Shown here: positions 1-49,328 of the stretch, piece after piece | How the letters are laid out: each line of letters begins with the position of its first letter | Position numbering within the stretch: the first letter of the stretch is position 1 | Assembly: GCA_000146465.1 (NCBI GenBank) | Contig: CP001952.1 | Length of the DNA stretch: 64,000 nucleotides | Reading direction: 5' to 3' (one strand) | Notes under the pieces: generated by a model | Database searches by the model: none | Told to the model about the DNA's origin: nothing | What the model saw: the letters and a program-made list of their open reading frames with translations, nothing else | Program-made: the position numbers and the translations under genes

Positions 1-310
1 CATTTCCTTCGATGAGTCTCCTCAGGCGCTCGACTGCTCCGATACTTACACACATATCCACCTCCATGGCCAGTCTGATGCAAGGATCCGAGAGTTCTAA
101 AGACGTCACGGTTTCAATAGTAGTATAAAAAGTCTTTTTGGAGCCTGTAGACAGATAATAAAGGAGCATATATGCCTTTATAAGAGCGCTGTTGTCTGTA
201 GAAGGGCTACAGGAAAGATAGGGCCCAAAATACATCTCTACCATTTCCGGATCCCCCTTCTTTATCCCAGTTAGACAGAGTGATTCTACTTCATTCAATT
301 GTTTATTCAT
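1..310 (-). CDS. 5' part of an unidentified protein-coding gene (N-terminus MNKQLNEVESLCLTGIKKGDPEMVEMYFGPYL...). The ORF runs off the window start.
   Basis: ATG (revcomp of cat at 308-310) opens a frame with no stop down to position 1. Not in the ORF track because it has no stop inside the window. Function unknown. Confidence 0.35.
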   Translation of the reverse strand, partial: MNKQLNEVESLCLTGIKKGDPEMVEMYFGPYLSCSPSTDNSALIKAYMLLYYLSTGSKKTFYTTIETVTSLELSDPCIRLAMEVDMCVSIGAVERLRRLIEGN

Positions 311-428
311 CCAAAAGCCCTCCTTATGAATTTTATTTCAAATAAAGCTAAATAGGATTTTAAGAGGCTTCTTTTAGATGATTCGAAGTAGTTCGGGCCC
401 ACAAAACCCTTGGTATTCCGCTGTGGTA

Positions 429-501
429 GTGACATTGGCGCAATAGGTAGCGCGCTGGTCTCATAATCCAGAGGTTGCGAGTTCGAGTCTCGCATGTCGC
501 A
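429..501 (+). tRNA. tRNA-Met, anticodon CAT, elongator type
   Basis: Manual cloverleaf: acceptor GTGACAT/ATGTCGC with discriminator A, D-stem GCGC/GCGC, anticodon stem CTGGT/TCCAG, loop CTCATAA (CAU anticodon), T-stem GCGAG/CTCGC with T-loop TTCGAGT. G1-C72 argues against an initiator. No CCA is encoded. Confidence 0.8.
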
Positions 502-542
502 TTTTAAACTTGCAAGCAGCTTTATACTTTATTAGCTTGGTC

Positions 543-1226
543 TTATGCAGTTCGGAATGTATTTCCTTCTCTACCTATAAATCTCTTTCTCAGGAGAAGA
601 TCAACAAATATGTTTATCTTTTCTCTTGGGATTGTAGAAATCTCATTGTAAATCTCCTCCAACGTGATTGGGGCCCTCGAGATAATCTCGTACACTAGAA
701 AAAGACCCTCTTCGTTCCTGAACAATGGAGGAAGCATGCCAGGATTAAACGGAAATATGTTATCAGATGACTCTGTCTCTTCGTAGGACTCAAAGGCTTT
801 TTCTTCTACTATTTTGACAAAGCTTGATGATTCGTTTTCAGCGTTACTTGTGTGGAACCTTGCCGAAAGATCTCCGAGAAACGTCTTGTTTAACATCTCC
901 GACGAGGTACTGTCAACAAATGGATTTCTTGGAGATGAAAGCTTCATCGATATTGGACTTCCTTCGGTAACACATATGTTTTGGAAGCTGGGCTCTTCCA
1001 CCAATCTTGGCTCATTTTCTGTGGTTAGTAACTCGCTTTCTTCGCTTTCGGATGATTCAACTGAAAAAAACCTTATCCATGGACTTAGGCCTTCGCTTAT
1101 TTTTCGGTTGTTCTTACCTATGCTTTCAATAGACCCTCGTATGTTTCTCAATGTTCTGTTGATGGAAGAAAACGTATTGTCTATCTCTTCTATTGTGCGG
1201 ATTATTTCCTCTTCAATCTCAATCAT
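543..1226 (-). CDS. hypothetical protein (227 aa) with an acidic S/E-rich middle and a possible winged-helix-like C-terminus
   Basis: ATG-initiated ORF filling the gap between the tRNA and the Sel1 gene. The opposite-strand ORF 814..1254 looks like antisense noise. No recognisable family. Confidence 0.5.
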   Translation of the reverse strand: MIEIEEEIIRTIEEIDNTFSSINRTLRNIRGSIESIGKNNRKISEGLSPWIRFFSVESSESEESELLTTENEPRLVEEPSFQNICVTEGSPISMKLSSPRNPFVDSTSSEMLNKTFLGDLSARFHTSNAENESSSFVKIVEEKAFESYEETESSDNIFPFNPGMLPPLFRNEEGLFLVYEIISRAPITLEEIYNEISTIPREKINIFVDLLLRKRFIGREGNTFRTA

Positions 1227-1456
1227 CAGGGTGGAATTGCAGAAAGGAAATTAGAATCGAATCAAGCATAACAAAGGCCTGGCCCGATTAACAAATAATG
1301 TCTTGTGTTTCAAAAAAAAGTGAGTTTTTATAGATGGCAAGCTCCAAACTGTTTTGCTGCTTTCCAATAGTTCCTTTTAATTGAGGATAATAAGTGCTAC
1401 AAGCTTCACTCTTCTAGGATTTTATACACAAATGCTTTTGTTAGTAATTCCTGTAG

Positions 1457-3223
1457 ATGGATACGCTTCACTCGTTCTTTGGGAAAAAGATGTCGCGAGA
1501 AGCCGACAGAGTACTTTTAGGAGTGGGAAGAAAAAGAGACGAGAAGCTCGGGCTGAAGATGCACATGGAAAACTCGGCAAGAGATGTGAATTCCCTTGCA
1601 ATTTCTGCATTCTGCCATGAATTTGGAATAGGAACGGCTGTAGATATGAAGAAAGCTGAAATGAGATACAGCAAGGCGGCATTGAGCGACAATGGTCTCG
1701 CATTGATCAGACTAGCATTTATAAGGTGGTTTGGAAGACCTACAGCGACAATAGACAGGGAAGAGGCCAAAAAGATCCTTGACAAACTAAAACGCCTAGG
1801 TAGAAAGAGTGTGGAATGGCTCTTTTATGCAAATAAGTATGGAAATCCCTATGCCAAGTATTGTTTGGGTGTGTGCTACCAAGAGGGTTATGGTGTTCCA
1901 ATAGACCCATTGTTGGCTGTAAAGTATTACAGCGAAGGAGCTTATGAGGCGAACATTTGCTCAATAGGAATACTCGGATATTGTTTTCTAAAGGGCTTTG
2001 GAGTGGAAAGAAATGAGGAAATAGCCGTTGAGCTGTTCAGATATGCATCCGAAAAGAAAGACTCAACAGCCCTATATAACATAGGATTCTGTTATGAAGA
2101 AGGAAAGGGTGTGGTGAGAAATCTTGTTAAGGCCTTTGAGATGTATAGACTGTCGGCGAAGATGGAGAATTCATATGCTCAAAATGCACTAGGAAATTGT
2201 TATGAGGAAGGTAAAGGTGTTAACAAAGATCTTCACAAGGCTTTTGAGTTTTATAAAAAAAGTGCCTTACAAGGATACCCATCTGGCCAGTGCAACTTAG
2301 CATTCTGCTATCAAAAAGGAATTGGAATAAAAAAGGATTTGCAGAAAGCCTTCGAGTGGTATAAGAGAGCTGCAGCTCAAGGGCTCAGTAGAGCGAAACA
2401 TAACATCGGATATTGTTATCAGAATGGGCTGGGAACTCCTCCATGTATGTCCAAGGCTGTCCACTGGTATAAAGAATCTGCATCTGAAAATAACAAATAT
2501 TCAATACATGCACTAGGAGTCTGCTACCAACATGGGTATGGAGTGCCCAAGGACGAGAGATTGGCTGTGAGATACTTTGGAGAAGGTGCTAAGATGGGTT
2601 TTGATGAAGCAATTATAAGCCTTGCGCTATGTTACAGGTCTGGAACTGGAGTCCGGGTATCTCCGGAGAAGTCCTTTGGGCTTATAAAGAGGGCTGCGAA
2701 GATGAACAATTCTTCAGCTCAGAATACCTTGGGATATTATTATGAAGAGGGATACGGAACACCTAAAAATATAAAGGAAGCCATCAAGTGGTATGGAATG
2801 AGTGCTAAACAAGACAATTCGTGGGCATTGTTCAACTTAAGCAACTTATATTTTAATAGGAGTCGCTCTTCTACAGATAAAGAGGTTGGAATGCGGCTTC
2901 TGATTAAGTCAAGAGACTTGGGAAATCCCAAGGCAATGGACACCTTAGGATATTACTTTGAAAAAGGTATTGGGGTCGAAAAGAATCCAATGCTCGCTTT
3001 CGAGCATTACAATCAAGCACTACAGGGCGGATACTTGAAAGCCGGATATAACCTTGGAAGATGCTATGAGAGCGGTATTGGAACAGAAATTGATTTGGAC
3101 AAGGCTTTGTATTATTTCTACAAGGCATCGTCCGCCGGAGAAGAAACCTCCCTACAAAAGCTCAAAAAGATATTGTCTTCCTTGGTCGAGCCAAATCATA
3201 TGCTCATTCCTCCTTACGCCTGA
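1457..3223 (+). CDS. Sel1-like repeat (SLR/TPR-like) protein, 588 aa
   Basis: About 14 tandem ~36-aa repeats with the Sel1 signature (G.G...D...A..WY.KAA.QG), e.g. AFEWYKRAAAQG, AIKWYGMSAKQD, ALYYFYKASSAG. Skt5/Hrd3-like architecture. Confidence 0.8.
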   Translation: MDTLHSFFGKKMSREADRVLLGVGRKRDEKLGLKMHMENSARDVNSLAISAFCHEFGIGTAVDMKKAEMRYSKAALSDNGLALIRLAFIRWFGRPTATIDREEAKKILDKLKRLGRKSVEWLFYANKYGNPYAKYCLGVCYQEGYGVPIDPLLAVKYYSEGAYEANICSIGILGYCFLKGFGVERNEEIAVELFRYASEKKDSTALYNIGFCYEEGKGVVRNLVKAFEMYRLSAKMENSYAQNALGNCYEEGKGVNKDLHKAFEFYKKSALQGYPSGQCNLAFCYQKGIGIKKDLQKAFEWYKRAAAQGLSRAKHNIGYCYQNGLGTPPCMSKAVHWYKESASENNKYSIHALGVCYQHGYGVPKDERLAVRYFGEGAKMGFDEAIISLALCYRSGTGVRVSPEKSFGLIKRAAKMNNSSAQNTLGYYYEEGYGTPKNIKEAIKWYGMSAKQDNSWALFNLSNLYFNRSRSSTDKEVGMRLLIKSRDLGNPKAMDTLGYYFEKGIGVEKNPMLAFEHYNQALQGGYLKAGYNLGRCYESGIGTEIDLDKALYYFYKASSAGEETSLQKLKKILSSLVEPNHMLIPPYA

Positions 3224-3235
3224 CCAAAGACAGAT

Positions 3236-3655
3236 TCACTTGAATTTGTTTTTATAGTTATGCCAGAAATTGATCCTATTTTTGAGCCTGTTTGGGATGA
3301 ACTTAGGATCTCCTCCTTTTGCATAGTCAACGTATATTAGATTTCCCCCGATACTGTGGTACTTCCCAGGGACATCATCTATATTTGCATTCTCCTCGAC
3401 TGACACAAAAGCATACCTTTTAAATACCTTTATATCTCTTATTGGGAATCTTTCACAAAAGGCCTCTTTCAGTGCTTCTTTTGCCGTCGCCCCAGCTATA
3501 AACAGCTCATTCTTCTTTCCTCGGGATTTCAGATGCTTTATGAACTTCGATATTCCCTCTACTCTTGGCAACTGCTTTTTCCTCCCCTGGGAGACAAAAG
3601 GTACTAAGGGTGATAGATGTTTGTCAAATGGTGCTTGTCTAATTAGATCCTTCAT
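3236..3655 (-). CDS. RRM-domain protein (Nop15/NIFK-like?), 139 aa
   Basis: RNP2-like ELFIAG and RNP1-like KRYAFVSV. The track start at 3670 is TTG. The first ATG (3653-3655) is followed by a GGG motif on the + strand. Confidence 0.55.
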   Translation of the reverse strand: MKDLIRQAPFDKHLSPLVPFVSQGRKKQLPRVEGISKFIKHLKSRGKKNELFIAGATAKEALKEAFCERFPIRDIKVFKRYAFVSVEENANIDDVPGKYHSIGGNLIYVDYAKGGDPKFIPNRLKNRINFWHNYKNKFK

Positions 3656-3706
3656 CTTGTGCAGATTCAAGGGTTTTTTATTTGTGGGGAGAAATCGTCT
3701 GAGACT

Positions 3707-6700
3707 CTAGAAGGCAATGTTGTTTGTAATCTTTTGGTACTGGTCATACATCCAAGTTCTAAACTTCTGAGATGATTCCGCTATTAAAGACTGGACAAAT
3801 CTTCTTGCATTTTTGTCTGATAATTCAAGCCTGAATCTTAGAGCAAAATTCTCTACTGCGTTTTTCTTATAGCAAGGAAGCCTGCTATTGGAAAACGAAT
3901 CCACCATCATAACAAGGTCCTTGCTGTGCCTTCTCAAAGCCAAAAATCCCTTGACCATTAACTCTTGATAGATTTCAAAGCCCTTTCCAGATATTCCTCC
4001 AAGAAGCTCCTCGATCTCCTTTGTTAGCTTCAGAGGAGCTTCTATGTTGAGATTTCCTGGAGACATCTCCAATATATATCCAAAGTCAATGTGGATCATT
4101 CGGCCTTTGTCGTCAATCATTATATTTCCGTTATGTCTGTCTTTGATGTTAAGGAAGTAAACAACTAATGAATATCCGGCCAAGCTAGAAGCAAAGTTGC
4201 AAATGGCTGTAAGATACCCCTCACTTTCCTTGAAGCCGAATTTGTATTCAAAGTATTCTGATAGATTGTTGATGTTCTCTTTTCCTATCTGATCCCTTGA
4301 TTTTGAATTTGGAATCACCTCTATAATTCCCGTTCCCGGAGACGTAGCTATGACTCTGTATGGATAGAGAAATATGTCTAGATTTGCCTGCTTGAATATC
4401 GACTCAAACATAGAGATTATTTGAAGAGCTAGCATGTCCTGTCTACAATCATCTCCGGATTTGAATATTAGTTGTTTGATGTTTATCTGCCCGCCTGGAT
4501 CTTGAACCCTAAAGGATGCCATGAAGGGAACCTTGGCATGACTCTGAAGAGCTCTTGCAGACCCTCCCATGATTTCGACAATCTTGAGCTCAGGATAAAA
4601 TGGAATATAAACCCCTGGAGACAGCTTTATCTTTGAAAGATGTTCATTTATGCGTCTTCTCTTTTCATCCTTTGACGATCTGAGATGGGGAATAAGTTCT
4701 GATGAGATTTTGGTAAGGCTACTAATAAATTCTTCTTCCTTAAGCAGAATGTCTCGTTCTTCTTCTGTCATTTCCCCCATGATTTCTTCCATGCATCGTG
4801 TAAATATGTCGTGGCAGTCATCTCTCTCTGTTCTATCTGATCCATATAAGTTTGCTTTCAAGTTCCAAATCAGCTGATGGGCGACGTATTCATCCTTGGC
4901 CAGATCCTTCAATGTGGCAAGTGCCATCTCAGACACTTTTTTATGTCTTATCATTTGAACAAGCTGAGGAACATAGAAAAGCATCTCACCTCTAAAGTCC
5001 TTAAGCCTCTCAAAGGCTTTGGATACCAGAGACGGATCATCTATCCTTCTGATTATTGTGAGGCAGTCAATAATTCCAAGAGATTCCATGTTAAAGAAGT
5101 ATGATCTGTAGGATGGAGTGGAGGATCTTTCAAGTAGCTTTTGAACTATCTTTTGCTTAAATGTGTTCTGTATGTGTATAAGATCTGCTATATCGAATTT
5201 GGAGATTAGCTGGGTCCTCTCTGGGAACGAAAGATCGTCATTACAGGAGAAGTTTGAGACTGCAAAATAAAGTGCCCTGAAAAAGAATCTGTAAAACCCA
5301 TTTGTCTCCATAGATAGTTTATAGCATATAGCAGGATCAGTCTTGAAGTCCAGTCCTCTGTGCAGTGCATGCTTCAGGAATTCTTCGGAGTCGTTTTCCC
5401 TAATCGATAGGATGTTGTAGGCCTTCAGAAGAATGTAAAGATCCTCATATTCAAACATATTTCTAAGTCTAAGCTTTAGAAGATCCAGAACTATTCTTAT
5501 TATCGAGCTCTGGCTTCTTCTTGTGTATATCACATCAATAAGCCATGAAACAGATTTCTCTCTCTTTCTAATGCCTTCATCCAGCATTTCTATCTGTCCA
5601 TTCCGGGAGACCGAGTGCATGGGTGATGAGCTGTGTAACGAAATACTTCCCATCGAACTCTCCAGACTTACAACACTGTCATTGGTTCCCGTATGAATTA
5701 TATTATACATATCGTGCGATTTTTCTTCTTTAGAATTTAGTCCCTCTTCTTTTCCTCTAATTCCATATTTTCTCCTGTTTTCTTTCCATTGAATACTGGA
5801 CATAAATGATTTGGAGGACGTTTCTTCGGTGTTCTCTGCGCTATTCCATCCATGGTCTACCATGAAGATGTCTGGAAACTCTTCTACAACTCCCATTCTG
5901 GATAATGTGTGATTGTATAGGTCATTGAAAGATTTAAAATGGCCTTTGGGAAGCTCTCCGTCAAAAAAAGAAATATCCGCTAAGCAAAGAACAACGTAAT
6001 TGTAGAAGTTTGGTGCACATCTAATCTTCTCCAGCATTTGCCTGTATAATCTGCGGTATGAGTCGGTAACTTCTTCACTCAAAAATCTCTTACTTGTAAG
6101 AAGAACGAAAAGTTTCTGGAACCTTTGATGGATTTCTTTCATGAATATGATCTTTTCTTCTTTCTCGAAAATCTTTCTCAAGATAATCTCAATCATCATT
6201 AACGTTGTTTCAATTGTTTTCGGCTCTAGCGCGATGTTCAAAAGAGCATTTACATACGAAAATGTGAATTCATGGGATTTGTTTATGTATCCATTGTGGA
6301 TAAGCTCTATCACACTGATCAAGCCATCTCGGGCCATTCGAATTCCGTCTTCATCTTGTATATACTCTAGTATTCCTGTATAGTTCGAGTTGTATAGCTT
6401 TCTGGACTCACAGTAGTACACAATCCCTAGAAACACAAGCATCCGTGGCTCAACATTTCTAAGGTTCAGGCCTGCTGCTAATTGGTGTAAGTATTTTACA
6501 TTGTAGTAGATGCTTGAGGATATTCCAACTAGAGCCGGAGTCTTGAGAAGAAACAGGTCTACTTGCTCAATTGCTTCGTTTTCAAAAAGAAAGGAGTATA
6601 TCTCATACAAAACATAAAGCACTTCCCGCTTTGATGGAATGTACGGAACAAGAGGAAGAACACCAATCAGTTCTCTGTTCTTTGTGCTCAGGAAAAACTT

Positions 6701-7969
6701 AAGGAACTCCGAAACAAGCTTATCTACATGGGCCTTGCTATACCTCTTCTCTTGGGCCTTCTTGAACAGGATAGAGTAAAATTCCTTCATAAACCCAAAG
6801 TTAGATATCTCGTGCAGACTGTGTAGAGGAAAGTCAACTTCGTTGATAAGGATGAAGTTTGAATACAGTTCAATGGTTTCTGGATACTTCACAATGAACT
6901 TTAAAAAGATACTGTTGAAGTCCCCCATATCCTTATTTATCCTGAGCTTAGATAGGAAGCTCAAGAAGTTCCATATCATTAAGTCTGTGTTCTTTGACTC
7001 GGAGTCTCGAAGACTATGGAAAATCTTTCGGAATGTATCGGCTATACTTTTGGTCTTTTCAATTTTTCCGTCTTGCTCAACCGCTTCAATTAAAGTTCCA
7101 ATAAACTTATTTTTATAACTTGCATCCAGGTATGTAAAACAATTGGATGTAAACACCAAATATAGCAAGTCGTAAAGTGCACCATCCTCGTACAGACATA
7201 TATTTGCCATCTGGATATGTATTCTAAACATGTTTTTTCCTGAAATAGGGAGGTCTTCAATAATCGGAAACACCTCATTCACTCTTTTTGCCACCTGCCC
7301 AGTTACCAAGGCATCAATAGCCAGTGAAGCCTTGAATACAAAAGTCATATCATCCTCCAGGTCCTTTATCTCTCCAAGAAAAACAAAAGTCTTGTAAAAG
7401 TATTCCTTAGCGAAAGCAAATATGTTTTTTTTCTCTATCTTTCTTTTTTTCTCGATCTTATCTTCCATCACCATTACAATAAGCCTTAGCGATAAAAGTA
7501 AGAAATCCAACTTTATATTTACTATGTCTTCTTTCAGACTCCACGAAGCAATCTCATAAAGAAGACCACTGGTCATTTTCCCACATAATTTTTCAATAAA
7601 CATCTCATATTTGCTTGCCGGCTGTTCTCCTTGCTCAATCTTCCATATTGAGGCTTCAATAAAAGCATTTATAACCCCAGTCGAAGAAAGAGTCTCAGGC
7701 TCTACGATACTTATGTCTGCCATGATTTCTTTACTTACATACTCATTATCCAACATTCTGAGAAACATCACTATATACATTTCATAGAGCTTACTGCTGT
7801 ATTCCAAGCATGTACTAGAGTTCTTTAAAATTGCATATGCATTCAATCCAAATCCCTCTTCATATGCTTCCATCTCAGATAACTTCTTGATATCCTCAAG
7901 AGTCGTTTCTCTAACAAGAGGTATGTAAATATCTTCCGAGCTCCCTTTTATTATCACCTCTATCTTCAT
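3707..7969 (-). CDS. STT4: phosphatidylinositol 4-kinase alpha (Stt4-type), 1420 aa
   Basis: C-terminal PI3/4-kinase catalytic domain with the PI4K-diagnostic GDDCRQDMLALQII, plus DRH (IKDRHNGNIMID) and DFG (HIDFGY). The long helical N-terminus is typical of Stt4. Confidence 0.85.
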   Translation of the reverse strand: MKIEVIIKGSSEDIYIPLVRETTLEDIKKLSEMEAYEEGFGLNAYAILKNSSTCLEYSSKLYEMYIVMFLRMLDNEYVSKEIMADISIVEPETLSSTGVINAFIEASIWKIEQGEQPASKYEMFIEKLCGKMTSGLLYEIASWSLKEDIVNIKLDFLLLSLRLIVMVMEDKIEKKRKIEKKNIFAFAKEYFYKTFVFLGEIKDLEDDMTFVFKASLAIDALVTGQVAKRVNEVFPIIEDLPISGKNMFRIHIQMANICLYEDGALYDLLYLVFTSNCFTYLDASYKNKFIGTLIEAVEQDGKIEKTKSIADTFRKIFHSLRDSESKNTDLMIWNFLSFLSKLRINKDMGDFNSIFLKFIVKYPETIELYSNFILINEVDFPLHSLHEISNFGFMKEFYSILFKKAQEKRYSKAHVDKLVSEFLKFFLSTKNRELIGVLPLVPYIPSKREVLYVLYEIYSFLFENEAIEQVDLFLLKTPALVGISSSIYYNVKYLHQLAAGLNLRNVEPRMLVFLGIVYYCESRKLYNSNYTGILEYIQDEDGIRMARDGLISVIELIHNGYINKSHEFTFSYVNALLNIALEPKTIETTLMMIEIILRKIFEKEEKIIFMKEIHQRFQKLFVLLTSKRFLSEEVTDSYRRLYRQMLEKIRCAPNFYNYVVLCLADISFFDGELPKGHFKSFNDLYNHTLSRMGVVEEFPDIFMVDHGWNSAENTEETSSKSFMSSIQWKENRRKYGIRGKEEGLNSKEEKSHDMYNIIHTGTNDSVVSLESSMGSISLHSSSPMHSVSRNGQIEMLDEGIRKREKSVSWLIDVIYTRRSQSSIIRIVLDLLKLRLRNMFEYEDLYILLKAYNILSIRENDSEEFLKHALHRGLDFKTDPAICYKLSMETNGFYRFFFRALYFAVSNFSCNDDLSFPERTQLISKFDIADLIHIQNTFKQKIVQKLLERSSTPSYRSYFFNMESLGIIDCLTIIRRIDDPSLVSKAFERLKDFRGEMLFYVPQLVQMIRHKKVSEMALATLKDLAKDEYVAHQLIWNLKANLYGSDRTERDDCHDIFTRCMEEIMGEMTEEERDILLKEEEFISSLTKISSELIPHLRSSKDEKRRRINEHLSKIKLSPGVYIPFYPELKIVEIMGGSARALQSHAKVPFMASFRVQDPGGQINIKQLIFKSGDDCRQDMLALQIISMFESIFKQANLDIFLYPYRVIATSPGTGIIEVIPNSKSRDQIGKENINNLSEYFEYKFGFKESEGYLTAICNFASSLAGYSLVVYFLNIKDRHNGNIMIDDKGRMIHIDFGYILEMSPGNLNIEAPLKLTKEIEELLGGISGKGFEIYQELMVKGFLALRRHSKDLVMMVDSFSNSRLPCYKKNAVENFALRFRLELSDKNARRFVQSLIAESSQKFRTWMYDQYQKITNNIAF

Positions 7970-8137
7970 GCCAGGAATGTTTGTTGGGGTGTAAGGTATT
8001 TATGCTATATGATCTTAAGCCTAAGTCTAATCCCGTCATCCTTCTATAAGACCGATCCTATGGTTAATGTAGAGCTTATAAGGTAATAACAATCAAAGAA
8101 TGTGATTTATTTCCTTTCAAGTCCTGAAGTTCGACCT

Positions 8138-24643: not shown

Positions 24644-25621
24644 CTATTCATTGCATGTGTAGAACAACATTAATGGATATCCACAAACATCTTTCATCTC
24701 CAAAATTTTTTCTACGCCTCCTGCTCCATATCCATGCCAGCCTTCCCCGTCCTTGACATAGCAGTAGCTCATGGTATTTTCTTCTGTTATAAAAGAACAA
24801 AGAGAGAAAGTGTGGCTTCCAAGGCTTATATTCGAACCGTTCAGTATATCGATGCCTCCCTGTTCTTTTACGACAAGTACAAGAACTGGCGGCTTCTTGG
24901 TTATCTTTCTATTTTTAACCTTTAGACTCGAATCAAAGGCCTCTTGGATATTGGAGAATCCTTTTAAAGACACCCTACTCTTTTCAAAAGAGATCTCCTG
25001 AGATTGGCTTCCAGAAACAGCTTTTCCCTGAAATATCTCTACAATTGGAGAATATTCCTTGTAAAGTAGCTTAGGCTTGGCTCCTTGGGTTTTACCCATG
25101 GTACTCCATGTATCCTCCTCAAAGTTGTAGTATTCGCAGAGCTCGTCGTGGATCGCCTGAAGAAGTTCTGAATATATATCTTCGTATACTTTCGAATCTG
25201 ACTCCATTAAAAGATCGCTTGCATTGGTTTTCTTCTCCTCCATCAGCAAGCGAAGAAATTCCGAAATTCTGAACATTATCTGGCATTTTTCTATATCTTC
25301 ACCTTTCTCTCTGAAGTTCAGGATAAAGTTGTAGAAGGGAGGAAGCCTGACAAGACATATCAGTAAGTTGAATATCTTTTCGTCAGACTCCACGTATTCA
25401 AGATCCACAACTCCAATATGCCTTTCCACAAATAGCTTATTTCCTGAGAGTAGGATTTTGTTCCCATTCAGTCTCCCCACAGGCCTCTTTGGAAGCCTAG
25501 GCGGCTGTCTAGTGACAATATTATATTCTTCCTCGGCCGTCATTTCGTTCAAAAAAAAGACACAGGACTCTGGTTTTGTTCTCATTAGTCCGATTCTCAG
25601 GATGTAAATTTTTAAGTTCAT
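24644..25621 (-). CDS. hypothetical protein (~325 aa)
   Basis: Track start at 25654 is GTG. The first in-frame ATG is ~25619-25621. Family not recognised. Homopolymer runs near 25551-25560 make my base-level reading there uncertain. Confidence 0.45.
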   Translation of the reverse strand: MNLKIYILRIGLMRTKPESCVFFLNEMTAEEEYNIVTRQPPRLPKRPVGRLNGNKILLSGNKLFVERHIGVVDLEYVESDEKIFNLLICLVRLPPFYNFILNFREKGEDIEKCQIMFRISEFLRLLMEEKKTNASDLLMESDSKVYEDIYSELLQAIHDELCEYYNFEEDTWSTMGKTQGAKPKLLYKEYSPIVEIFQGKAVSGSQSQEISFEKSRVSLKGFSNIQEAFDSSLKVKNRKITKKPPVLVLVVKEQGGIDILNGSNISLGSHTFSLCSFITEENTMSYCYVKDGEGWHGYGAGGVEKILEMKDVCGYPLMLFYTCNE

Positions 25622-25687: not shown

Positions 25688-27493
25688 TTAGGACTGATTC
25701 AAAGATGCAATGATGTCTAGTATTTCTCTTCTGCTCATCACAACAGAAGATGAAATCGACTCCTGGATGCTCAGGTCGAAGTAACTAAACAAGTTCAGGA
25801 TGTGCAGAACTATTGGACTTTTCAATGACAAGCTGTGGAGGTGAATATCAGAGTTCAGATAGTCCCTTGGATTCAATCCAAACACAGCCTTAAAACACCC
25901 CATAATCGACGTCTGTATTCCAAGAAGCTTAAGATAGCTAGAATTGTCGACTCCATTTACATGGACCAGTTGGTTGGACCTTGAATACAGCATAATACTA
26001 TTCTTCCTAAACCCTACTCTGGAAGATGAGAGTCTTCCCAGATTGGTTTTCATCTCCACTCTCTTGACAAGTTTAGCTCCATCCATGCTTATTATGTTAT
26101 TTGGAGAGTAGGTGTATGCATGAATTGTTCCCTTGATGTCGCAACACACCATCGAAAGCTCATTGCCAGTAATAAGAAGTTCTGTAGAGGTTGCATTCTT
26201 AAGAGGCTCGCTAGAGCTTATCAGGTGGAGTCTAATTGGCTTGGACTGGAAGAAAAAGAACGACAAGCCTCTATAAATGTCGGATGCAAGAATGTAGTTT
26301 TTAACCACAGATATAGAGGATGTAAATGTGTGCAAGTCATGGAAACCTATGGGTATTATCCCGCTGCCCCTGTCAATTTTGTAAATCATTATCTTGGTTC
26401 CCAAACATAGTACAATCTTACCACGAACTTCAGAGCATTGGACAATCGATCCCTTAGTCTTTTCAATTCCCAAAACCTTGAGTTTACAGTCTTTGAAAGG
26501 GCTCTCCAACGACGGAACAACAGAAATTATTTCTAGTACATGAAGCCGGCCTTTCGCAGGCCTATCTTCTCCTTCAATGAAGGTTGTGCAAACAAGTAGA
26601 AAAGGGGACTTTCCATAATTTCCCTGCATATCATCCAAAACGAGATACTGGATATCAAAGACATACTCGTTCTCTTCTAATTCATAAGTACTTATATGCT
26701 CGTATTTCTCCGAATACAGGTCGACATAGAACCGATAGGTGTTTACAGGAACTCCACAGTCTTTTCCATTCTTTGGGGAAAACTCAACTTCTTCGCATGA
26801 GGCTACTACCATGTACCGATCTGCATACTCGATGTGCTTTGGTGTTCTAAGAACTGGAATCTTTTTCCCAATAAATCCGCTTCCAAAAACATATCCGTTT
26901 TCAATGCTGGGGACTCTGCAGACCATTAGATAGCCTTTGGAGAGTTGTATCACATCGTCTCCATCCATAGCTATTGAATTTAGAGTGTACTGACTTCTGT
27001 ACAAAAAATGTCCCTTGTCTGTTGGAACCATAAATACGTTGGTTGTTGCTTTTATGAATACCATTGTACCCACATTGTAAAATGCCTTGGTCTCCGGAGA
27101 TAGATTGAAGGCAATGTGTCTTGGAAGATGTATTTTGAAAAAGATTACTTCAGAAGGAAGGGTTTCCCTGAGAAGTGCCTCCAGCCCGAAGGATTCATAT
27201 GCAACCATGTAACCTCCTTTCAATCTGAAGAGCATAAGAATCTTGGTGCCCGTTGCAAGCATGGCCATCTCTATAACGGCTTCATCATCGTTCTTCTCCG
27301 ATAGATCTATAGGTACAGATGTCTCCGATGAAAATCTTATCGCGTATGGAACGCCTCTTATTGAACAAGGAGGAAATTGCCCCATCCGTTTGTCTATGTC
27401 GAAGATGCTCAAAAGATCATCAGAAAGAATAAAAACCTTATTCCCGATATCTGCAAAACATGTAACGTTAGGGATGCAGGTAACCACGGTCAT
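25688..27493 (-). CDS. SF3b3/CPSF160/DDB1-family beta-propeller protein, C-terminal portion (CPSF_A domain), 601 aa. Lower half of a split gene.
   Basis: CPSF_A-type C-terminal propeller pattern (..ILASDIYRGLSFFFFQ...LITGNELSMVCCDIKGTIHAY). The ATG at 27493 lacks the GGG/CCC start motif and lies 65 nt below the stop of the upstream same-family ORF. Confidence 0.6.
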   Translation of the reverse strand: MTVVTCIPNVTCFADIGNKVFILSDDLLSIFDIDKRMGQFPPCSIRGVPYAIRFSSETSVPIDLSEKNDDEAVIEMAMLATGTKILMLFRLKGGYMVAYESFGLEALLRETLPSEVIFFKIHLPRHIAFNLSPETKAFYNVGTMVFIKATTNVFMVPTDKGHFLYRSQYTLNSIAMDGDDVIQLSKGYLMVCRVPSIENGYVFGSGFIGKKIPVLRTPKHIEYADRYMVVASCEEVEFSPKNGKDCGVPVNTYRFYVDLYSEKYEHISTYELEENEYVFDIQYLVLDDMQGNYGKSPFLLVCTTFIEGEDRPAKGRLHVLEIISVVPSLESPFKDCKLKVLGIEKTKGSIVQCSEVRGKIVLCLGTKIMIYKIDRGSGIIPIGFHDLHTFTSSISVVKNYILASDIYRGLSFFFFQSKPIRLHLISSSEPLKNATSTELLITGNELSMVCCDIKGTIHAYTYSPNNIISMDGAKLVKRVEMKTNLGRLSSSRVGFRKNSIMLYSRSNQLVHVNGVDNSSYLKLLGIQTSIMGCFKAVFGLNPRDYLNSDIHLHSLSLKSPIVLHILNLFSYFDLSIQESISSSVVMSRREILDIIASLNQS

Positions 27494-27558
27494 CTCCCTA
27501 TCATAAAAAACAAGTCTTTTTTCGGAATCCCTTACTGCAAGAAATAATCCACTACAAA

Positions 27559-29151
27559 TTATTTTTGCCTCTGCCGCTTTGCTAGTAAAGTCTCCTCTAC
27601 CACCTTAAGGTTATGATCCATTCCCAACCAGAAGGTAGGTGTAATCTGAATTATTCCAGTGCCGAACTCCGCAAAAAGTAACGTGTCCATATCTTTAGCA
27701 TATTTTCCATCCACTTCCAAAAGACTCTTTTCAGGCCATTTAAAGACCTTTGTATCCCCTGCTCTACCCAGAATGTAGAAGTCTAAGACCCTTGAACAAT
27801 ACAAATATCTTCTTGTCTTCTGAGACTTCAAGATTTTCAATGGCATAATATTGCTTACAACGCGTACTCCGGGCTCTAGTCCTTCAACAACAAAGACTGC
27901 TTCATTTTCTCTTTTCATCGCCACTTCATTCAAAAATCCGATGTTTGAAATCTCGTCAACTTGATGGAGAGTAAAAGTTTCTCCAGCTCTTGACTCAGAA
28001 CCTTCATTGAAAAGCTTGGCATACTCTTCATCTTGTTTCTGGGTTTCTTGGTCTTTGTTTCCAAACAGTTTAGAATACTCTTCCAGTACACTTCTTTCAG
28101 CCGGGATGACATTTTCTTCTGTCCTTCGCCGGAGGCTCTTTATTTCAAACAACTCCGAGCTGTCGCCTATAGATCCAACAAATAAGAGGTTCTCCACCTC
28201 TCCTATGCAACTGGCTATAGATCCTCTTCTCTCAAACTCCAGAGATGCCCCTATGATTCTTTTTATGTCCATCGATATCTCGAGTCTATATCGATCTCCA
28301 TTTCCATTGAATATCAGGCAGGTGTTTCCTCTCGAAAAGAAATTTACATCAAAAAGAACTACGTCGTTAAGTGCTTTGCCCGCTTCACATGCTTCGGACA
28401 TCCTATTCAAAGGAACCGAGTACGAGCTGCTTGTAGATCTTATTAATATAGAGTTGTGTGATATAAACAGTAGGATGGAACCGGCACATACCACCTTAAA
28501 TGTTTTTGGGGGAACTAGAAACTCGTCGATAGTATGGAATTTTCCTGCACTTAGATCAATCGAAAACACTATGGCATTGTAATTCCTTACAACTGTGTAC
28601 TTCTTAGGAAGCGAATCGTACACCAGACACACAGTGGGAATGGAATAGTTTTCCAGAAAAGTAAAGTCGATTGGATTCTTGATCTTTCCATCGATATCTA
28701 TAAACTTAAAGACCTTTGCGTTGAACATCCCAGGAAACAAAGGAAAGACACTAAAATAACGCTTGTTCATCTGAAACATCCCTAGATCAGTGCCTATTCG
28801 GACATTCCTTATATCTTCGTCTTTGATGTCGAACTCATCCTTTTCGAAAAACTTTAAAGACGTTGTCTTGAATTCGTTTTCCTGAGGATCAAACCTCACA
28901 AGAGAAATCTTTGCCTTATGAAACAGAAAAACTAGACCGTCTTGGTCTGGAGATATCCTATACTTTTCCACCTGGCAAACTCTCTCAAATAGAATATGCT
29001 GCTTCACCAAAACCAGCCCCGAGCCGTACTTCCAGAGTCTTACGATGTTCCCGTTATATGTTAGAAACGAATGTGTCCCGGGTATAAAGAACCCTGCAGA
29101 ACATCCCTCGACGCTGTTCCATGGACTCTCTTGTGAATATAGGTAGTTCAT
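27559..29151 (-). CDS. SF3b3/CPSF160/DDB1-family protein, N-terminal portion. Upper half of the split gene.
   Basis: N-terminal propeller blades. Probable start MNYLYSQ... (ATG 29149-29151, GGG adjacent) rather than the track start 29238. Ends AKRQRQK-stop at 27559. The 27493 ATG frame stays open upstream to ~27604 (..IICSGLFLAVRDSEKRLVFYDRE..), resembling SF3b3 RFLAVGLVDNTVRIISLD. Confidence 0.6.
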   Translation of the reverse strand: MNYLYSQESPWNSVEGCSAGFFIPGTHSFLTYNGNIVRLWKYGSGLVLVKQHILFERVCQVEKYRISPDQDGLVFLFHKAKISLVRFDPQENEFKTTSLKFFEKDEFDIKDEDIRNVRIGTDLGMFQMNKRYFSVFPLFPGMFNAKVFKFIDIDGKIKNPIDFTFLENYSIPTVCLVYDSLPKKYTVVRNYNAIVFSIDLSAGKFHTIDEFLVPPKTFKVVCAGSILLFISHNSILIRSTSSSYSVPLNRMSEACEAGKALNDVVLFDVNFFSRGNTCLIFNGNGDRYRLEISMDIKRIIGASLEFERRGSIASCIGEVENLLFVGSIGDSSELFEIKSLRRRTEENVIPAERSVLEEYSKLFGNKDQETQKQDEEYAKLFNEGSESRAGETFTLHQVDEISNIGFLNEVAMKRENEAVFVVEGLEPGVRVVSNIMPLKILKSQKTRRYLYCSRVLDFYILGRAGDTKVFKWPEKSLLEVDGKYAKDMDTLLFAEFGTGIIQITPTFWLGMDHNLKVVEETLLAKRQRQK

Positions 29152-29265
29152 TGGGGTTGCAATTTCCCGGTGCCAAACCCGGTTTTCCCACCGAAGACCA
29201 TATTGCAAGCAAATCTCGCACTGGAAAAAGATGAACATAGGGGTATAAGTTTAATACAGGCCGGT

Positions 29266-30444
29266 CTATCTTCCAGCCTCAGGCTTATTTCTTTTTGTGA
29301 TTGTTAGAAAGCTGATTCCCAAGGCTTCTTTGAATGTGATGATCACTTTTGAAGCCACCAAGATGTAGTAAACAGAGGAAAAGACAAAAGAGACAGCTAT
29401 AAAGGCTTCTCGGAACTTCTTAGGATTTTGTAGTTGTAAGACAACGGAAATCATCAGATACATCAAATACACGGGGATGAACAGGAACAAGTCCTTTCCG
29501 ATGATGTATGAAAATACCTCGTTGACATACTTTATCGAAAATATCTGCCCAAACATTAAAATGTTTAGATATTGTATCCACAAACTTTCTGTACTGAGAG
29601 TGTTGTGAAGAACAACGAACGATGCTATGAGGGACATCATCCTTAGAAAAGTTGAGTATAAAGAAAGTCTCCTTGGAGGACGCATTTTGGATTCTATCGA
29701 TATCAAGGTCAATATAGTATTGCCAACCAGGCATGTAGTAATGATTGCCGAGATTGCACTAAAGTTGTTTGTTCTCAAGATCAAGGAGTAAGTCTTTTTG
29801 ATGGGCCAGAGGAACTCGTCGGAAAAGACATATTGGAAAAAGCCTTTTCCACATAGAGAGGTAATAAGATGCGATATCAAAGCAAATGCTATGCCCTCTG
29901 AAGCTCCACTGATTTTTCCCAAAACAAAGTGCCCGGTGAATTTTTCCTCGATTCCAGCAAGATAGAACTCGATCATGATGGCCAATGTGAATATCAAGAA
30001 TTTCTGAGATAGCCCAAATCCGAATGCAGAGGAAAGAGCTATGCTTGTGGCAAGTGCACAGCATGAATCCACCCCATGGTCAAAAAGTTGTCCTAAAGGA
30101 GACCCGGACCCTGTTTTCCTGGCCTGGGCACCGTCTAGATTGTCGCATGTAAAGTACACAAACATCAGAAAAAAGTTTACCAACGAAAGAAGTCTGGGCG
30201 GGTTGCATAAGTAGGGATCAAATATCAGAGTTAGGCCCAAGCTGATTGCCATTGCAATAAATCCACAGAGAGTTAGTGTATTTGGGGCTACTGTTGCAGG
30301 TATTTTTTCTAGTGACCATTTGACATAGTGATGGATTACATACTTCGAGAGGATGGAGTTGTCTGTTCCAATAAATCTATGTTTCCTTAAGCTTGAAAGC
30401 TCATCAGCTCCCAGCTCTATTTTGAAGAAACTTCCTTTTAGCAT
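29266..30444 (-). CDS. EPT1: choline/ethanolamine phosphotransferase (CDP-alcohol phosphatidyltransferase, Kennedy pathway)
   Basis: CDP-alcohol motif DNLDGAQARKTGSGSPLGQLFDHGVDS (D-G-x2-A-R-x8-G-x3-D-x3-D). Multiple TM helices. The track ORF extends to 31080 through antisense of the next gene. I chose the internal ATG (30442-30444), which has GGGGG adjacent. Confidence 0.8.
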   Translation of the reverse strand: MLKGSFFKIELGADELSSLRKHRFIGTDNSILSKYVIHHYVKWSLEKIPATVAPNTLTLCGFIAMAISLGLTLIFDPYLCNPPRLLSLVNFFLMFVYFTCDNLDGAQARKTGSGSPLGQLFDHGVDSCCALATSIALSSAFGFGLSQKFLIFTLAIMIEFYLAGIEEKFTGHFVLGKISGASEGIAFALISHLITSLCGKGFFQYVFSDEFLWPIKKTYSLILRTNNFSAISAIITTCLVGNTILTLISIESKMRPPRRLSLYSTFLRMMSLIASFVVLHNTLSTESLWIQYLNILMFGQIFSIKYVNEVFSYIIGKDLFLFIPVYLMYLMISVVLQLQNPKKFREAFIAVSFVFSSVYYILVASKVIITFKEALGISFLTITKRNKPEAGR

Positions 30445-30574
30445 CGGGGGAGGAGTGTGGCTGAATATATAAGGATGCAGTTTAATTCTTTTTGATAAAT
30501 TACTATATAATTCCAAATGAGGAACTCGAAAGTAACAGAGAAGAATTGAGGATTTGCAACCTGTATTTGAAGGA

Positions 30575-31462
30575 ATGGAAACCCCCCAGAAAGTTATGAT
30601 AGATGCCAATAATGAAAAGAAAAGCCAGTCCAAGCAGCTTTGTCCGATAAAGATTCCGTTGGCCGGGCCTCTTAAAGACATGATAGGAAGAGAGGTGGGA
30701 GACAAAGCTTCTACGGTAATTGATATTCTCGAGGGGGTGGTACCTACAGTGTCTCCAGAAGACATGTACAGCGAGTTGGTAGAGGCGTTGAGTCCTGTAG
30801 TAGACCAGAAGGCGAAAGGACTAGTAGGAAAGGTTATGGCGTACAAAAGGAAGACTTGCCGAGATGGAGACGAATGTAAGGCAAAGAATTGCATTTTTTT
30901 GCATAGCTGGGATAGAAAGAGTGGGGAAGGCTCTGTCCAGACAGGGTCCAAGGGAAGAGAAGAAGGAATAGATAGCGGGGAGGTGACTGGAAAGAGAAGG
31001 AGAACAAATGAATCAAATGAAAATAATGAGGTGGTGTTCAACAAAGTAAACGAGTCAAGGCATAATCCAGAAAATCTCAAGGCTTATGCAGCGAGATTTG
31101 GGAAAGTTGTGAACTTCAAGAGGCTCAATCCCGAAAAGTATCTTGTTGTCTTCGAAGACCCTGAGTCGGCCAGTGAATTGGTGAAATCATCGGAGCCGGT
31201 TCTCGAGGACTTTGGAATTAAGAAGTTCTACAATGTTATAGACAATCTTGTTAAGGTAGAACTCAAAAAGCTGTTTGAAGAGCAAGAAACCGTGATAGAC
31301 AAGATGTCTACGGAGTTTTCTGCTGCACTTCTGGGACATCTACGAAACATAAATATCCGAATAAGGAATTTAGTTCTGAAAGAGAAATTAAAGGACGGAA
31401 CAGGGACAGACAACAAGAGAGGATTTGATCAGGAAAACAGTCTATATTACAACTGTTTCTGA
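30575..31462 (+). CDS. CCCH-type zinc-finger protein with an RRM-like region, 295 aa
   Basis: C-x5-C-x4-C-x3-H (CRDGDECKAKNCIFLH) followed by an RRM-like segment (KAYAARFGKVVNFKRL...KYLVVFEDPESA). Track start at 30554 is TTG. First ATG is at 30575. Confidence 0.5.
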   Translation: METPQKVMIDANNEKKSQSKQLCPIKIPLAGPLKDMIGREVGDKASTVIDILEGVVPTVSPEDMYSELVEALSPVVDQKAKGLVGKVMAYKRKTCRDGDECKAKNCIFLHSWDRKSGEGSVQTGSKGREEGIDSGEVTGKRRRTNESNENNEVVFNKVNESRHNPENLKAYAARFGKVVNFKRLNPEKYLVVFEDPESASELVKSSEPVLEDFGIKKFYNVIDNLVKVELKKLFEEQETVIDKMSTEFSAALLGHLRNINIRIRNLVLKEKLKDGTGTDNKRGFDQENSLYYNCF

Positions 31463-45004: not shown

Positions 45005-47176
45005 TTATTCGCTATTGAAAACAACAACCCTACGCAACGCCTCCTCAAACTTCTCATAGTTGATGTTCTCTGTAATTATAGAGCCTCCTCCGCTGGGATT
45101 AACATAGTGGTGGAGAATCCTTTGCTGCGACTTGTTCTGCTCGGTAATGCAGAACTGGGGTGTTGGCAGTCTTTCGTTGCATAAGGTTCGGGCTCTTTCC
45201 TCGCTGCTCTTCAATATATTCTTGAGGAACTCGTATTCCGCCTGTTCATGGTATCCTTCTTTGACCCACTGTGCAACATACTCTCCTCTCCATACAACTA
45301 CGTTGTGGAATGTATCCAGGACAAGAACCACATCTGGCATCAAAGACTTACTGTCTACTTCCACCGCTTCAACCCCGCCTTGATAGTGGTATGAAACAAG
45401 CGTAGGCTTGATGAGCTTCAGTGCATCCGACACTTTTTGGTTGTACAGAAGTGATGAGTAGTATGCTGTTTCATCAGGAGAGTTGTTTCCTGTTTGGACC
45501 AGGAGACTCCTTCGGAAAAAGAACATATAGTTTGGATAGTATGCCATGGAATCGGGAAGAGACAACGAAGAAGGCTCCCCCTTATCGTATCTGGCAAACG
45601 TCTTAGTGAATCTGATAAGGTTCTTATCGATCATTCTTTCACAGTCCTTTATCTCCTCATATTTCTTTAGAAGGAGGAATCTAGCTTGAAAGACTGCAAC
45701 TGCTTCCTGGTCGAATCCACATACTACATCCTCCCTTGAATCTGTAAATAGTCGAGCAAAAGTTGTTACCCTCACCAGAAGTTTCTTATCACTTCTTTGA
45801 TATTGCGTAACCAGCTGTACATATCCAAACTCCCCATGCTTTGCATCTGGCTTTTTATCAAGAAGAATCGAAATGTTTGTGCATGGAAATATAGATCCTA
45901 TTCTCCAGCATCCTCCTAAGGATCTTCCCTGCCCAATAATCCCCTTGTATTCGAGATTCTTACTTGTCTTAACTTGTATCTTTGCATTAAATCCTTGTGC
46001 CAGGTATCCTTCCTTGCTTCTATTCAGTACTTTATTACATGATGAGATATAAATATCTCTGTCAAAGTCCTGTGCCATTATAAGCATCCCTCCAGTCATT
46101 GTGGTCAACCGCTCCATGTGGCATATTCCAACATCAACAATTGTGGCTGCAAGAATGTCAAGACTGTGCCCTACACTATTCATCCTTTCCGCAAGCCCTG
46201 TATAGAACTTTCTTGCAGGCCCTGCATACATCGGATCATTTTCCTCAAGATGTTCGTTTCTTCCCTTCTCCTTAAATTTTATAGGTGTTGTCGTCCCAGG
46301 CCCGAATGTGCAGGGTCCTTGTGTAAACAGAAGGTACTTTACAGCCGTATCAGGAAAGCTTGTTTCTAACAGCGAAAGAGCCAACGACACGGCAGAGCCC
46401 GTACATCTTACAGGCTTGTATGCAGGAAGAACAGGAAATGGATCCTTCTCAAGACCTTCCACTATGTTCTGTAGAAAGTCACGGCATTCCTCTTTTCTCC
46501 TCAGAAACCTTCCCACAACTTGCGATTCAGACTTCGAGGCTGCATTCAAGGACTTGAGGACTTCTGCTGTATATTCCTTCTTGCCAGAAAACAGATGTGT
46601 TTTCCGTGGCGATGCCGTACTTAGCTCCAGAAGTTCGATGTTTGTTCCATACTTGATAAGCCCAATTAGAGCATCTTCGGGAATCCCCTCCACCACCGTC
46701 TTAAGTGCATCCTTAAGAAGTATGTGTCTCTGCTCATCAAACGTGCATATGTCAACAATAAGAAAGAATACCGTAGGAAACACGCTTTCCCTATTCAAAA
46801 CATATTCAATTGTCGAATTCTGTGGTAATAGCTCAGGCAGAAGATTGTCTGGTGTTATTCCTCGTGCATGGCTTGGTAGCGCTGTATTGTTGTTGCATAT
46901 TATACAGTTCCAGGTTTGTCTCCCAAAGTCGATGTTACAATGAGGATTTAGGACACTTTTACAACTCATGCAGTATATGGGCTCACATTCAAGAACCCCC
47001 GTCTCCTGATGAATGTTGTACAAACATGCTAATGGAACCTTTGTTGTAGCATCTCCCTTGGAAGGCCATACATTCCAGGTAAGCCTTATTCCATCATTTT
47101 CCTCTATGTTTCTAATCTCCTCCTCCATAAGGGTTAACAAAAATTTCTGTAAACATCTTAAGCCAAGGACTTCCAT
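45005..47176 (-). CDS. SEC23: COPII coat protein Sec23
   Basis: N-terminus GIRLTWNVWPS...zinc finger CMSCKSVLNPHC...WNCIICNN, then trunk (vWA), beta-barrel, helical and gelsolin-like regions collinear with Sec23. Confidence 0.9.
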   Translation of the reverse strand: MEVLGLRCLQKFLLTLMEEEIRNIEENDGIRLTWNVWPSKGDATTKVPLACLYNIHQETGVLECEPIYCMSCKSVLNPHCNIDFGRQTWNCIICNNNTALPSHARGITPDNLLPELLPQNSTIEYVLNRESVFPTVFFLIVDICTFDEQRHILLKDALKTVVEGIPEDALIGLIKYGTNIELLELSTASPRKTHLFSGKKEYTAEVLKSLNAASKSESQVVGRFLRRKEECRDFLQNIVEGLEKDPFPVLPAYKPVRCTGSAVSLALSLLETSFPDTAVKYLLFTQGPCTFGPGTTTPIKFKEKGRNEHLEENDPMYAGPARKFYTGLAERMNSVGHSLDILAATIVDVGICHMERLTTMTGGMLIMAQDFDRDIYISSCNKVLNRSKEGYLAQGFNAKIQVKTSKNLEYKGIIGQGRSLGGCWRIGSIFPCTNISILLDKKPDAKHGEFGYVQLVTQYQRSDKKLLVRVTTFARLFTDSREDVVCGFDQEAVAVFQARFLLLKKYEEIKDCERMIDKNLIRFTKTFARYDKGEPSSLSLPDSMAYYPNYMFFFRRSLLVQTGNNSPDETAYYSSLLYNQKVSDALKLIKPTLVSYHYQGGVEAVEVDSKSLMPDVVLVLDTFHNVVVWRGEYVAQWVKEGYHEQAEYEFLKNILKSSEERARTLCNERLPTPQFCITEQNKSQQRILHHYVNPSGGGSIITENINYEKFEEALRRVVVFNSE

Positions 47177-47258: not shown

Positions 47259-49328
47259 TCATCGAGTTATCTTGTACATTCCTGCACCTTTCTTTATGAT
47301 AAGCCCGTTGTGGTTGAGTGCTTCTATAAAATCATTGGCAGGCTTTCCGGAATCAAAAGATATTATTAGTCTACGTAGCTCCTCAACACTAACTACCCAT
47401 TCTCCCTTCTTCCTTCCATATTCCTTAAGCACCTGAGAAAAATCCCCATTTCTTCTACTATTAGACATCTTTTCTCTAGGAACAAACGTCCTCCTATGTA
47501 GTTCGATACAAAAAACTGCATCTGCTCTTGTAGCTATACTCCTCAATTCTGCTTTCGCTCGAGCTTCTGTTAGTCTAATCAACGACTCCAGATCCCTTGC
47601 AGAAACCCCTCCCTGCTTCCGGATCTCAACATAATATTCTCTTATGGCTTCTTTTGCCGATTTGCTCAGAACAGGAAACACATTTGCACGTGCATAGGAA
47701 ATATACTTCCTCATTATCTCCATTGGATAAACATCTCCTCTACTTCGGACTTCCTCAATAAAGTCATCTCTTCTAATCGTCTCCATAATATCGTCAAATT
47801 CACTTCCTATTCCTGGAGACAATGTCTGCCTTTTCTTCAGAATTTGCCCAGATATCATGTAGCTCTCCTTTTCAGACAGGTCGTCTAGAAGGAGAAAGAC
47901 AAGATCAAACCTTGACAAAAGGCCTGGGTCAAATCTTATGTTTTCCATCATTGATTTGGTTCTATCGAAGTGTCCATGCCTTGGATTAGTTGCTGCTATC
48001 ACAGTAGACCTTGTTGGAACACTACAGATCACTCCTCCCTTTGCTATGCTTACTTTCTGATCTTCCATGGCTTCAAATAAAGCTGCATGGTCGTCTATCT
48101 TGTCAAACTCATCCAAACAGCATATTCCATTGTCGGCCACCACCAGTGCTCCTGCATCCGCCATATATTCCCCAGAAACAGGATCGTGTGTCAAGGAAAC
48201 CGTTAATCCAGCTGTTGTGGTGAAGCTCCCACTCACGTAACTGCTCTTCGGAAGAATACTACATGTCCCCAACAGCAGCCTGCTTTTTCCAAGCCCGGGA
48301 TCTCCGATTATAAGGACATGTGTTTCAGACCTAATCAGATGCTGTCCTGCCATCTTCCTGGTTCCCCCAAATAAAGAAAGCACTAGTCCGATCTTTATCA
48401 GTTCATTTCCATACACGGACGAATAAAGCGAGCGCACAAGAGAGGCCAGCGTGTTTTTTCCCTTTGCTATTCTTCTAAATTCCGCAAAGTCTCTACTTTG
48501 ATATTCCAGGCTCTCTATAAAAAAATTCTTGTTCTTGACAATTTGAAGATTGTTTATATGGACCATCAATCTGTAGAGGCCGTCGTTTTCTAATTCAACT
48601 CCAAGCACTCCTACAATCTGCACAATGTCTCCTGGCACTAGAATCCCCACAAATTCATCGTAAAGAATGCAGTCCACAGCCTTTGGGATTCCCTTTCCAT
48701 CTTCTCCTATTCCCCCATAGAGCTCCTGTATTTTGATTTCCTGCATGTCTCTGCATTCCATCTCTGGATGATTTCGCATAAGAACAAAACTCCTTGAGTT
48801 ACACGAACCTTTGCATCCTGCCGGAGGTCTGTAAACGTTGTTCTTTACATTCACGTATATTACGTCTCCACACTTGGAACACTCAAAAAACATCTTACTG
48901 ATAATTACTCTTCTGAACCCCACTCGGCATACTGTTCCTGCCATAAAGACCAGCTTCCCAAGATTGGCTCTGTCAACATCTCCAAAATTTCCTTCCTTGT
49001 TCACTGTCTCGACCCTAGTACAGATCTTTACCGACAAATACCCTTTGTCATAGAGTAGCTCGGAAACAGCACAGGAAACACACAGAAGTAAGTTTCCTGC
49101 GTTTGTATCAAGAAGATTCTTTTCAACAAGACTCTCGAGATACTGCTCCGATATATAGTAGACTCTTGCTTCTAGAATCCTCTCCAGTTTATCCTCTGAT
49201 AAAACGTCTTTCAATTTCTTCTTTACTGCAAGTATTATCTGGACAAGCTCGTTGAAAGCAGTGAACTCTTCCTCGGGGAAATACATGTTCCATGTTTCTA
49301 TGTGCATCCCCTTGGATCTAGTACTCAT
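47259..49328 (-). CDS. MCM: MCM2-7 family replicative helicase subunit (paralog undetermined)
   Basis: Zinc-finger region CSKCGD...CKGSC. AAA+ MCM box with Walker A IIGDPGLGKS, Walker B/MCM signature CLDEFDKIDD, arginine finger SRFD. Confidence 0.9.
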   Translation of the reverse strand: MSTRSKGMHIETWNMYFPEEEFTAFNELVQIILAVKKKLKDVLSEDKLERILEARVYYISEQYLESLVEKNLLDTNAGNLLLCVSCAVSELLYDKGYLSVKICTRVETVNKEGNFGDVDRANLGKLVFMAGTVCRVGFRRVIISKMFFECSKCGDVIYVNVKNNVYRPPAGCKGSCNSRSFVLMRNHPEMECRDMQEIKIQELYGGIGEDGKGIPKAVDCILYDEFVGILVPGDIVQIVGVLGVELENDGLYRLMVHINNLQIVKNKNFFIESLEYQSRDFAEFRRIAKGKNTLASLVRSLYSSVYGNELIKIGLVLSLFGGTRKMAGQHLIRSETHVLIIGDPGLGKSRLLLGTCSILPKSSYVSGSFTTTAGLTVSLTHDPVSGEYMADAGALVVADNGICCLDEFDKIDDHAALFEAMEDQKVSIAKGGVICSVPTRSTVIAATNPRHGHFDRTKSMMENIRFDPGLLSRFDLVFLLLDDLSEKESYMISGQILKKRQTLSPGIGSEFDDIMETIRRDDFIEEVRSRGDVYPMEIMRKYISYARANVFPVLSKSAKEAIREYYVEIRKQGGVSARDLESLIRLTEARAKAELRSIATRADAVFCIELHRRTFVPREKMSNSRRNGDFSQVLKEYGRKKGEWVVSVEELRRLIISFDSGKPANDFIEALNHNGLIIKKGAGMYKITR

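Follow-up and report, generated by a model that had tools for sequence, protein, structure and literature searches.

A missing TGGT copy divides the predicted CPSF160/Cft1 gene in the 2010 genome record of Encephalitozoon intestinalis

Two adjacent minus-strand open reading frames in a 64,000-nt stretch of E. intestinalis DNA (hereafter the window; contig CP001952.1 of assembly GCA_000146465.1) are, judged by their sequence, the two halves of one ordinary CPSF160/Cft1 protein of ~1155 aa. They are separated by a 4-nt difference, the lack of one TGGT copy at 27599-27603, and the gene is an intact ORF in four other records of the species. The missing nucleotides probably reflect a mistake made in finishing or assembling the 2010 record and not biology. 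The split is a known peculiarity of one public record, already corrected in later assemblies, and not new biology; we found no support for recoding, for an intron or for a functional division of the gene. The reading frames concerned are the following:

27559-29238, minus strand: ORF1, 559 aa, the N-terminal part, identical to ADM12547.1/XP_003073907.1
25688-27493, minus strand: ORF2, 601 aa, the C-terminal part, identical to ADM12546.1/XP_003073906.1
25688-29151, minus strand: the full extent in the window of the predicted CPSF160/Cft1 orthologue, which a frameshift at 27599-27603 breaks

The ORF list of the window places ORF1 and ORF2 next to each other in different frames, with exactly the coordinates given in an earlier note made from the letters alone. 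Both deposited products (ADM12547.1 and ADM12546.1) are named "pre-mRNA cleavage and polyadenylation specificity factor" in the 2010 assembly of E. intestinalis ATCC 50506 (Corradi et al. 2010, PMC4355639). The whole gene starts at the Met of a conserved MNYLYSQ (ATG 29151-29149) and ends with the stop codon at 25690-25688. On the coding strand ORF1 finishes with ...CAA AAA TAA (stop at 27561-27559), and the ORF2 frame can be read upstream as far as 27604, being closed just beyond by a TAA at 27607-27605. This bears out the earlier placement of the limit at ~27604. The two frames overlap over 27559-27604, so that a change of frame anywhere in this interval would fuse ORF1 and ORF2. CPSF160/Cft1 is one continuous polypeptide in the four other E. 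intestinalis records and in 10/10 orthologues, whereas it is split in the window.

A similarity search with the fused model that the earlier note had proposed returned 11 proteins, each of them one polypeptide (1115-1186 aa) that aligns over 97-98% of the query, with identities of 99% in E. intestinalis, 74-75% in E. hellem, E. romaleae and E. cuniculi and 51-52% in Ordospora. Both ORFs are covered by the same single homologues and belong to the same family, not to two different ones, and the orthologous locus is a single intact ORF in each of the 10 orthologues. Of the ~1130-aa SF3b3/CPSF160/DDB1-type protein initially proposed, the single protein thus stands, but its length is rather ~1155 aa and its sequence assigns it to CPSF160/Cft1 specifically, not to SF3b3. 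This assignment rests on profile comparisons: the CPSF_A domain (PF03178) was matched in the ORF2-frame product with E = 3.7e-60 (204 bits against a gathering cut-off of 27) and in P0001 with 203 bits (E-values across the proteins tested range from 1e-59 to 4e-60). ORF1 alone gave no Pfam match, the N-terminal two thirds of the protein being too diverged for Pfam. When the intact protein was compared by phmmer with all PDB chain sequences, only human CPSF1 (1e-24) and yeast Cft1 (1e-20) were found, and a profile built from the 12-sequence alignment raised these matches to 2e-41 and 9e-33, respectively, while no SF3B3 or DDB1 chain was matched up to E = 10. Because the family profile matches CPSF1/Cft1 and neither SF3B3 nor DDB1, we assign the gene to CPSF160/Cft1; membership of SF3b3/Rse1 was ruled out on the lack of any SF3B3 chain at E <= 10.

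CPSF160/Cft1 is the scaffold subunit of the machinery that cleaves and polyadenylates mRNA 3' ends, in the module that recognises the polyadenylation signal, and the family is characterised by binding to WDR33 and CPSF30; SF3b3/Rse1 and DDB1 are paralogous triple-propeller scaffolds of the same superfamily, and some orthologues of the gene carry a precomputed match to PF23726 (Beta-prop_RSE1_2nd). The E. intestinalis protein shares the C-terminal CPSF_A domain with human CPSF1 and yeast Cft1 but, at 1155 aa against 1443 and 1357 aa, it is ~200-290 residues shorter, as is usual for microsporidia. An AlphaFold model of low confidence, made from 11 sequences only (mean pLDDT 48.9, pTM 0.36), is mostly beta-strand with a helical C-terminus; searched with this low-confidence model, Foldseek placed CPSF160 chains at ranks 1-7 and DDB1 structures next, with a TM-score of only ~0.17.

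To locate the break, the window was set against other records of the species. The 90% cluster of the best match has four members, ADM12547.1, ADM12546.1, UTX46403.1 (which equals KAL7346530.1 and KAL7348467.1) and KAL7344555.1. The gene is an intact single ORF in UTX46403.1, KAL7346530.1 and KAL7348467.1 (1184 aa) and in KAL7344555.1 (1155 aa), and these differ from ADM12547.1 plus ADM12546.1 in the TGGT copy and the choice of start codon only. From its accession series, we infer that UTX46403.1 comes from the 2023 telomere-to-telomere re-sequencing of ATCC 50506, an assembly made from Illumina, Nanopore and PacBio reads and polished with Pilon (PMC10158259); it was compared here at the protein level. 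The KAL records match isolates ATCC 50507, 50603 and 50651, sequenced with Illumina at >300x (PMC12697097). Two sites at the break need to be told apart:

27599-27603, minus strand: the actual lesion, with a single TGGT (27602-27599) in place of the TGGT-TGGT of intact alleles; this is the point of the frame switch
27562-27566, minus strand: an A5 run (T5 on the plus strand), not the lesion; the intact gene reads GCA AAA ATA (A-K-I) here

Read as DNA, two isolate assemblies have AAGG-TGGT-TGGT-AGAGG where the window has AAGG-TGGT-AGAGG; in longer context, the intact allele is CCTTAAGG TGGT TGGT AGAGGAGAC and that of the window CCTTAAGG TGGT AGAGGAGAC, a 4-nt gap that can be placed anywhere within 27599-27603. 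In DNA alignments this gap was the sole difference from the window in two contigs of the ATCC 50603 assembly, over 9,555 nt (L002) and over 23,555 nt (L004, window 15688-39238), and a 13,468-nt contig of GCA_051312775.1 (L001) differed by the gap and one SNP. When TGGT was put back, the window gene became an ORF of 1184 codons whose product is identical to P0012/UTX46403.1. The DNA of E. hellem and E. romaleae has the length of the intact allele at this site, but in this comparison only E. intestinalis has the TGGT doublet as such. The lack of one TGGT shifts the frame by -4 nt (equivalent to -1), ending the N-terminal ORF after 12 junk codons and leaving the C-terminal half in the other frame.

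The coding sequence on either side of the break reads as follows:

27559-27597, minus strand: the out-of-frame tail of ORF1, EETLLAKRQRQK plus TAA
27494-27601, minus strand: true coding sequence upstream of the nominal ORF2 ATG, GRGDFTSKAAEAKIICSGLFLAVRDSEKRLVFYDRE in the ORF2 frame
27491-27493, minus strand: the nominal ORF2 ATG, read as an internal Met (column M583, invariant across orthologues)

The correct junction peptide is KVVGRGDFTSKAAEAKIICSG, which agrees with the orthologues; in context, the intact junction reads KVV-GRGDFTSKAAEAK-IICSG. In the alignment with the 10 orthologues, the 13-residue core GRGDFTSKAAEAK has 47/130 identical cells, against 7/120 for the ORF1 tail EETLLAKRQRQK, which also needs a one-column gap. 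By this comparison the tail is out-of-frame junk and no real protein sequence. Conversely, GRGDFTSKAAEAKIICSGLFLAVRDSEKRLVFYDRE is identical to P0001/P0012 and aligns with the orthologues. The nominal ORF2 ATG encodes an internal Met, invariant in all orthologues, and is no start codon. Its lack of a GGG/CCC start motif, on which the earlier note had relied, was inaccurately described, the ATG being preceded by ATAGGGAG.

That note had instead explained the split by a single-base indel within the T5/A5 run (27562-27566), a reading to which we now give practically no credence. On paper, one extra A in the run joins the two frames, but L001 and L002, both intact, have GGCAAAAATAATTT unchanged at the A5 run, the TGGT at 27599-27603 is the sole difference, and the resulting peptide EETLLAKRQRQK is unlike the orthologues and leaves the fusion one residue short. 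The +1 A fusion was accordingly rejected on both the DNA comparison and the orthologue alignment. Since the lesion had been misplaced by ~40 nt (the true site lies upstream) and mis-sized (4 nt, not 1), the reconstructed junction was wrong too: the proposed ...AKRQRQKIICSG... errs over 12 residues where ...KVVGRGDFTSKAAEAKIICSG... is correct.

We also considered that the split might be biologically meaningful, whether by programmed -1 ribosomal frameshifting, through an intron that had gone unrecognised or as two expressed subunits, as the earlier note had allowed in naming an unusual expression mechanism. Both halves are long intact ORFs, and the A AAA-stop context at 27566-27559 makes a P-site slip conceivable. 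Yet the orthologues place the join of the frames at 27599-27603 and not at the A-run, and no relative and no other isolate is divided in the same way. At the true junction (27599-27603), the sequence reads G GTG GTA with no X XXY YYZ pattern, hence no slippery heptamer, and the 89 nt downstream of the ORF1 stop fold no better than shuffled sequences (z = +0.43). A programmed -1 site was rejected on these two results and on the single ORF of all relatives. An intron scan gave 15 GT..AG candidates of length 3n+2 that would remove the stop, the shortest of 77 nt, and none of the 15 has a canonical GTAAGT-like donor; a spliceosomal intron was rejected because, in addition, every candidate would delete residues found in orthologues. 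Two separate genes were rejected by the collinearity with single-ORF orthologues. A meaningful split of any of these kinds is thus very improbable. Scans of the site for bacterial-type promoters and terminators returned nothing, as expected for a eukaryote, and neither did Tandem Repeats Finder, as expected for a 2-copy 4-mer.

The question then is whether the shorter allele belongs to the record or to the organism. The gene is intact in the later re-sequencing of apparently the same ATCC strain and in three other isolates, and we favour an error in the record on these grounds; a sequencing or assembly indel is thus the best supported of the three options that the earlier note had listed. As a speculative route, contig ends ...AAGGTGGT and TGGTAGAGG... 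might have been merged via an apparent 4-nt overlap during polishing with PCR, Sanger sequencing and Consed. For the 2010 genome, 31-bp reads were assembled with Velvet (k=19, 40x), and the scaffold breaks were polished by these means (PMC4355639).

The alternative is a real but private deletion, in which slippage removed one TGGT in the 2010 stock and the consensus picked up an allele that was subclonal, heterozygous or a very young pseudogene. Losing exactly one of two tandem units, as here, is the classic signature of replication slippage. A de Bruijn assembler normally does not invent a 4-nt deletion, and none of the 19-mers around the site recurs in the sequence examined, so that no such repeat explains a Velvet break and with it an assembler mistake. 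Moreover, apart from this gap the 2010 record matches another isolate without error over 23.5 kb around the site, showing that the record is accurate elsewhere and not generally sloppy. Against this deletion stand the intact gene of the apparently identical, re-sequenced strain and of all three other isolates, and the conservation of a single-copy core factor (52-75% identity across Encephalitozoon and Ordospora). CPSF160/Cft1 is, furthermore, essential in yeast. Homozygosity in the diploid E. intestinalis is exceptionally high (PMC10845963), and a homozygous truncation of an essential factor would be hard to tolerate. We regard a private deletion as unlikely, at perhaps a chance in five, and a single-TGGT allele that is both real and fixed in the 2010 ATCC 50506 stock as highly implausible. 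Such a fixed allele would truncate the essential CPSF160 after its first ~517 residues or make it in two pieces that reassemble, and a microsporidian with a minimal mRNA-processing apparatus would have been propagated with a broken or two-piece CPSF160 scaffold.

With an error of the 2010 record as the preferred reading, the split is a matter of data quality: GenBank/RefSeq lists a core polyadenylation factor as two half-length proteins (XP_003073906 and XP_003073907), and such entries make the number of genes too high and can lead analyses of orthology or domains astray. New biology would be implied only if read data showed the deletion to be real. The CPSF160 gene is not discussed in the telomere-to-telomere paper (PMC10158259), and a literature search on its accession numbers found no papers.

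The 5' end of the gene is drawn differently among public records, with ATG 29238 in the 1184-aa model (UTX46403.1) and ATG 29151 in the 1155-aa model (KAL7344555.1). The feature at issue is:

29152-29238, minus strand: an in-frame upstream extension of 29 codons (MFIFFQ...ATP), present in the 1184-aa models and not in the 1155-aa one

The extension is missing from 8/10 orthologues and from KAL7344555.1, which start at MNYLYSQ (ATG 29151), while an N-terminal extension of similar kind occurs in E. hellem (P0002) and a short one in P0008. CCCC stands at -5 to -2 before both ATGs (29238 and 29151). On this pattern, the 29 codons are probably not translated. Upstream, a mechanically called TTG-initiated ORF (29266-31080, minus strand, 604 aa) is an over-extension of what other assemblies annotate as a 392-aa CDP-alcohol phosphatidyltransferase; the end of that gene lies 27 nt before the 1184-aa CPSF160 ORF and ~114 nt before the MNYLYSQ start, an extreme gene density.

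Elsewhere in the window, later assemblies record no exact match to the products of two long ATG-initiated ORFs (45005-47176 and 47259-49328, both minus strand, 723 and 689 aa), although they do for 3707-7969; the reason may be a different choice of start codon or additional differences in sequence between the 2010 and later assemblies. The SNP noted above lies at window position 25413, in the 313-aa gene just downstream of CPSF160, and is G in the window and the ATCC 50603 assembly (L002/L004) and A in GCA_051312775.1 (L001). Being the only substitution in 13.5 kb, it indicates that E. intestinalis isolates are highly clonal. The Logan assembly of an unrelated public run (ERR13302946) contains a 20-kb E. 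intestinalis contig (L003); it matches window 1-8017 with 3 SNPs (7742, 2866 and 2115) and there departs from the window further than the ATCC isolates do in the other regions compared (15688-39238). Finally, five CPSF160 orthologues (P0004 and P0006-P0009), 52-74% identical to the query, come from read-set (Logan) assemblies alone and point to Encephalitozoon- or Ordospora-like microsporidia in public data.
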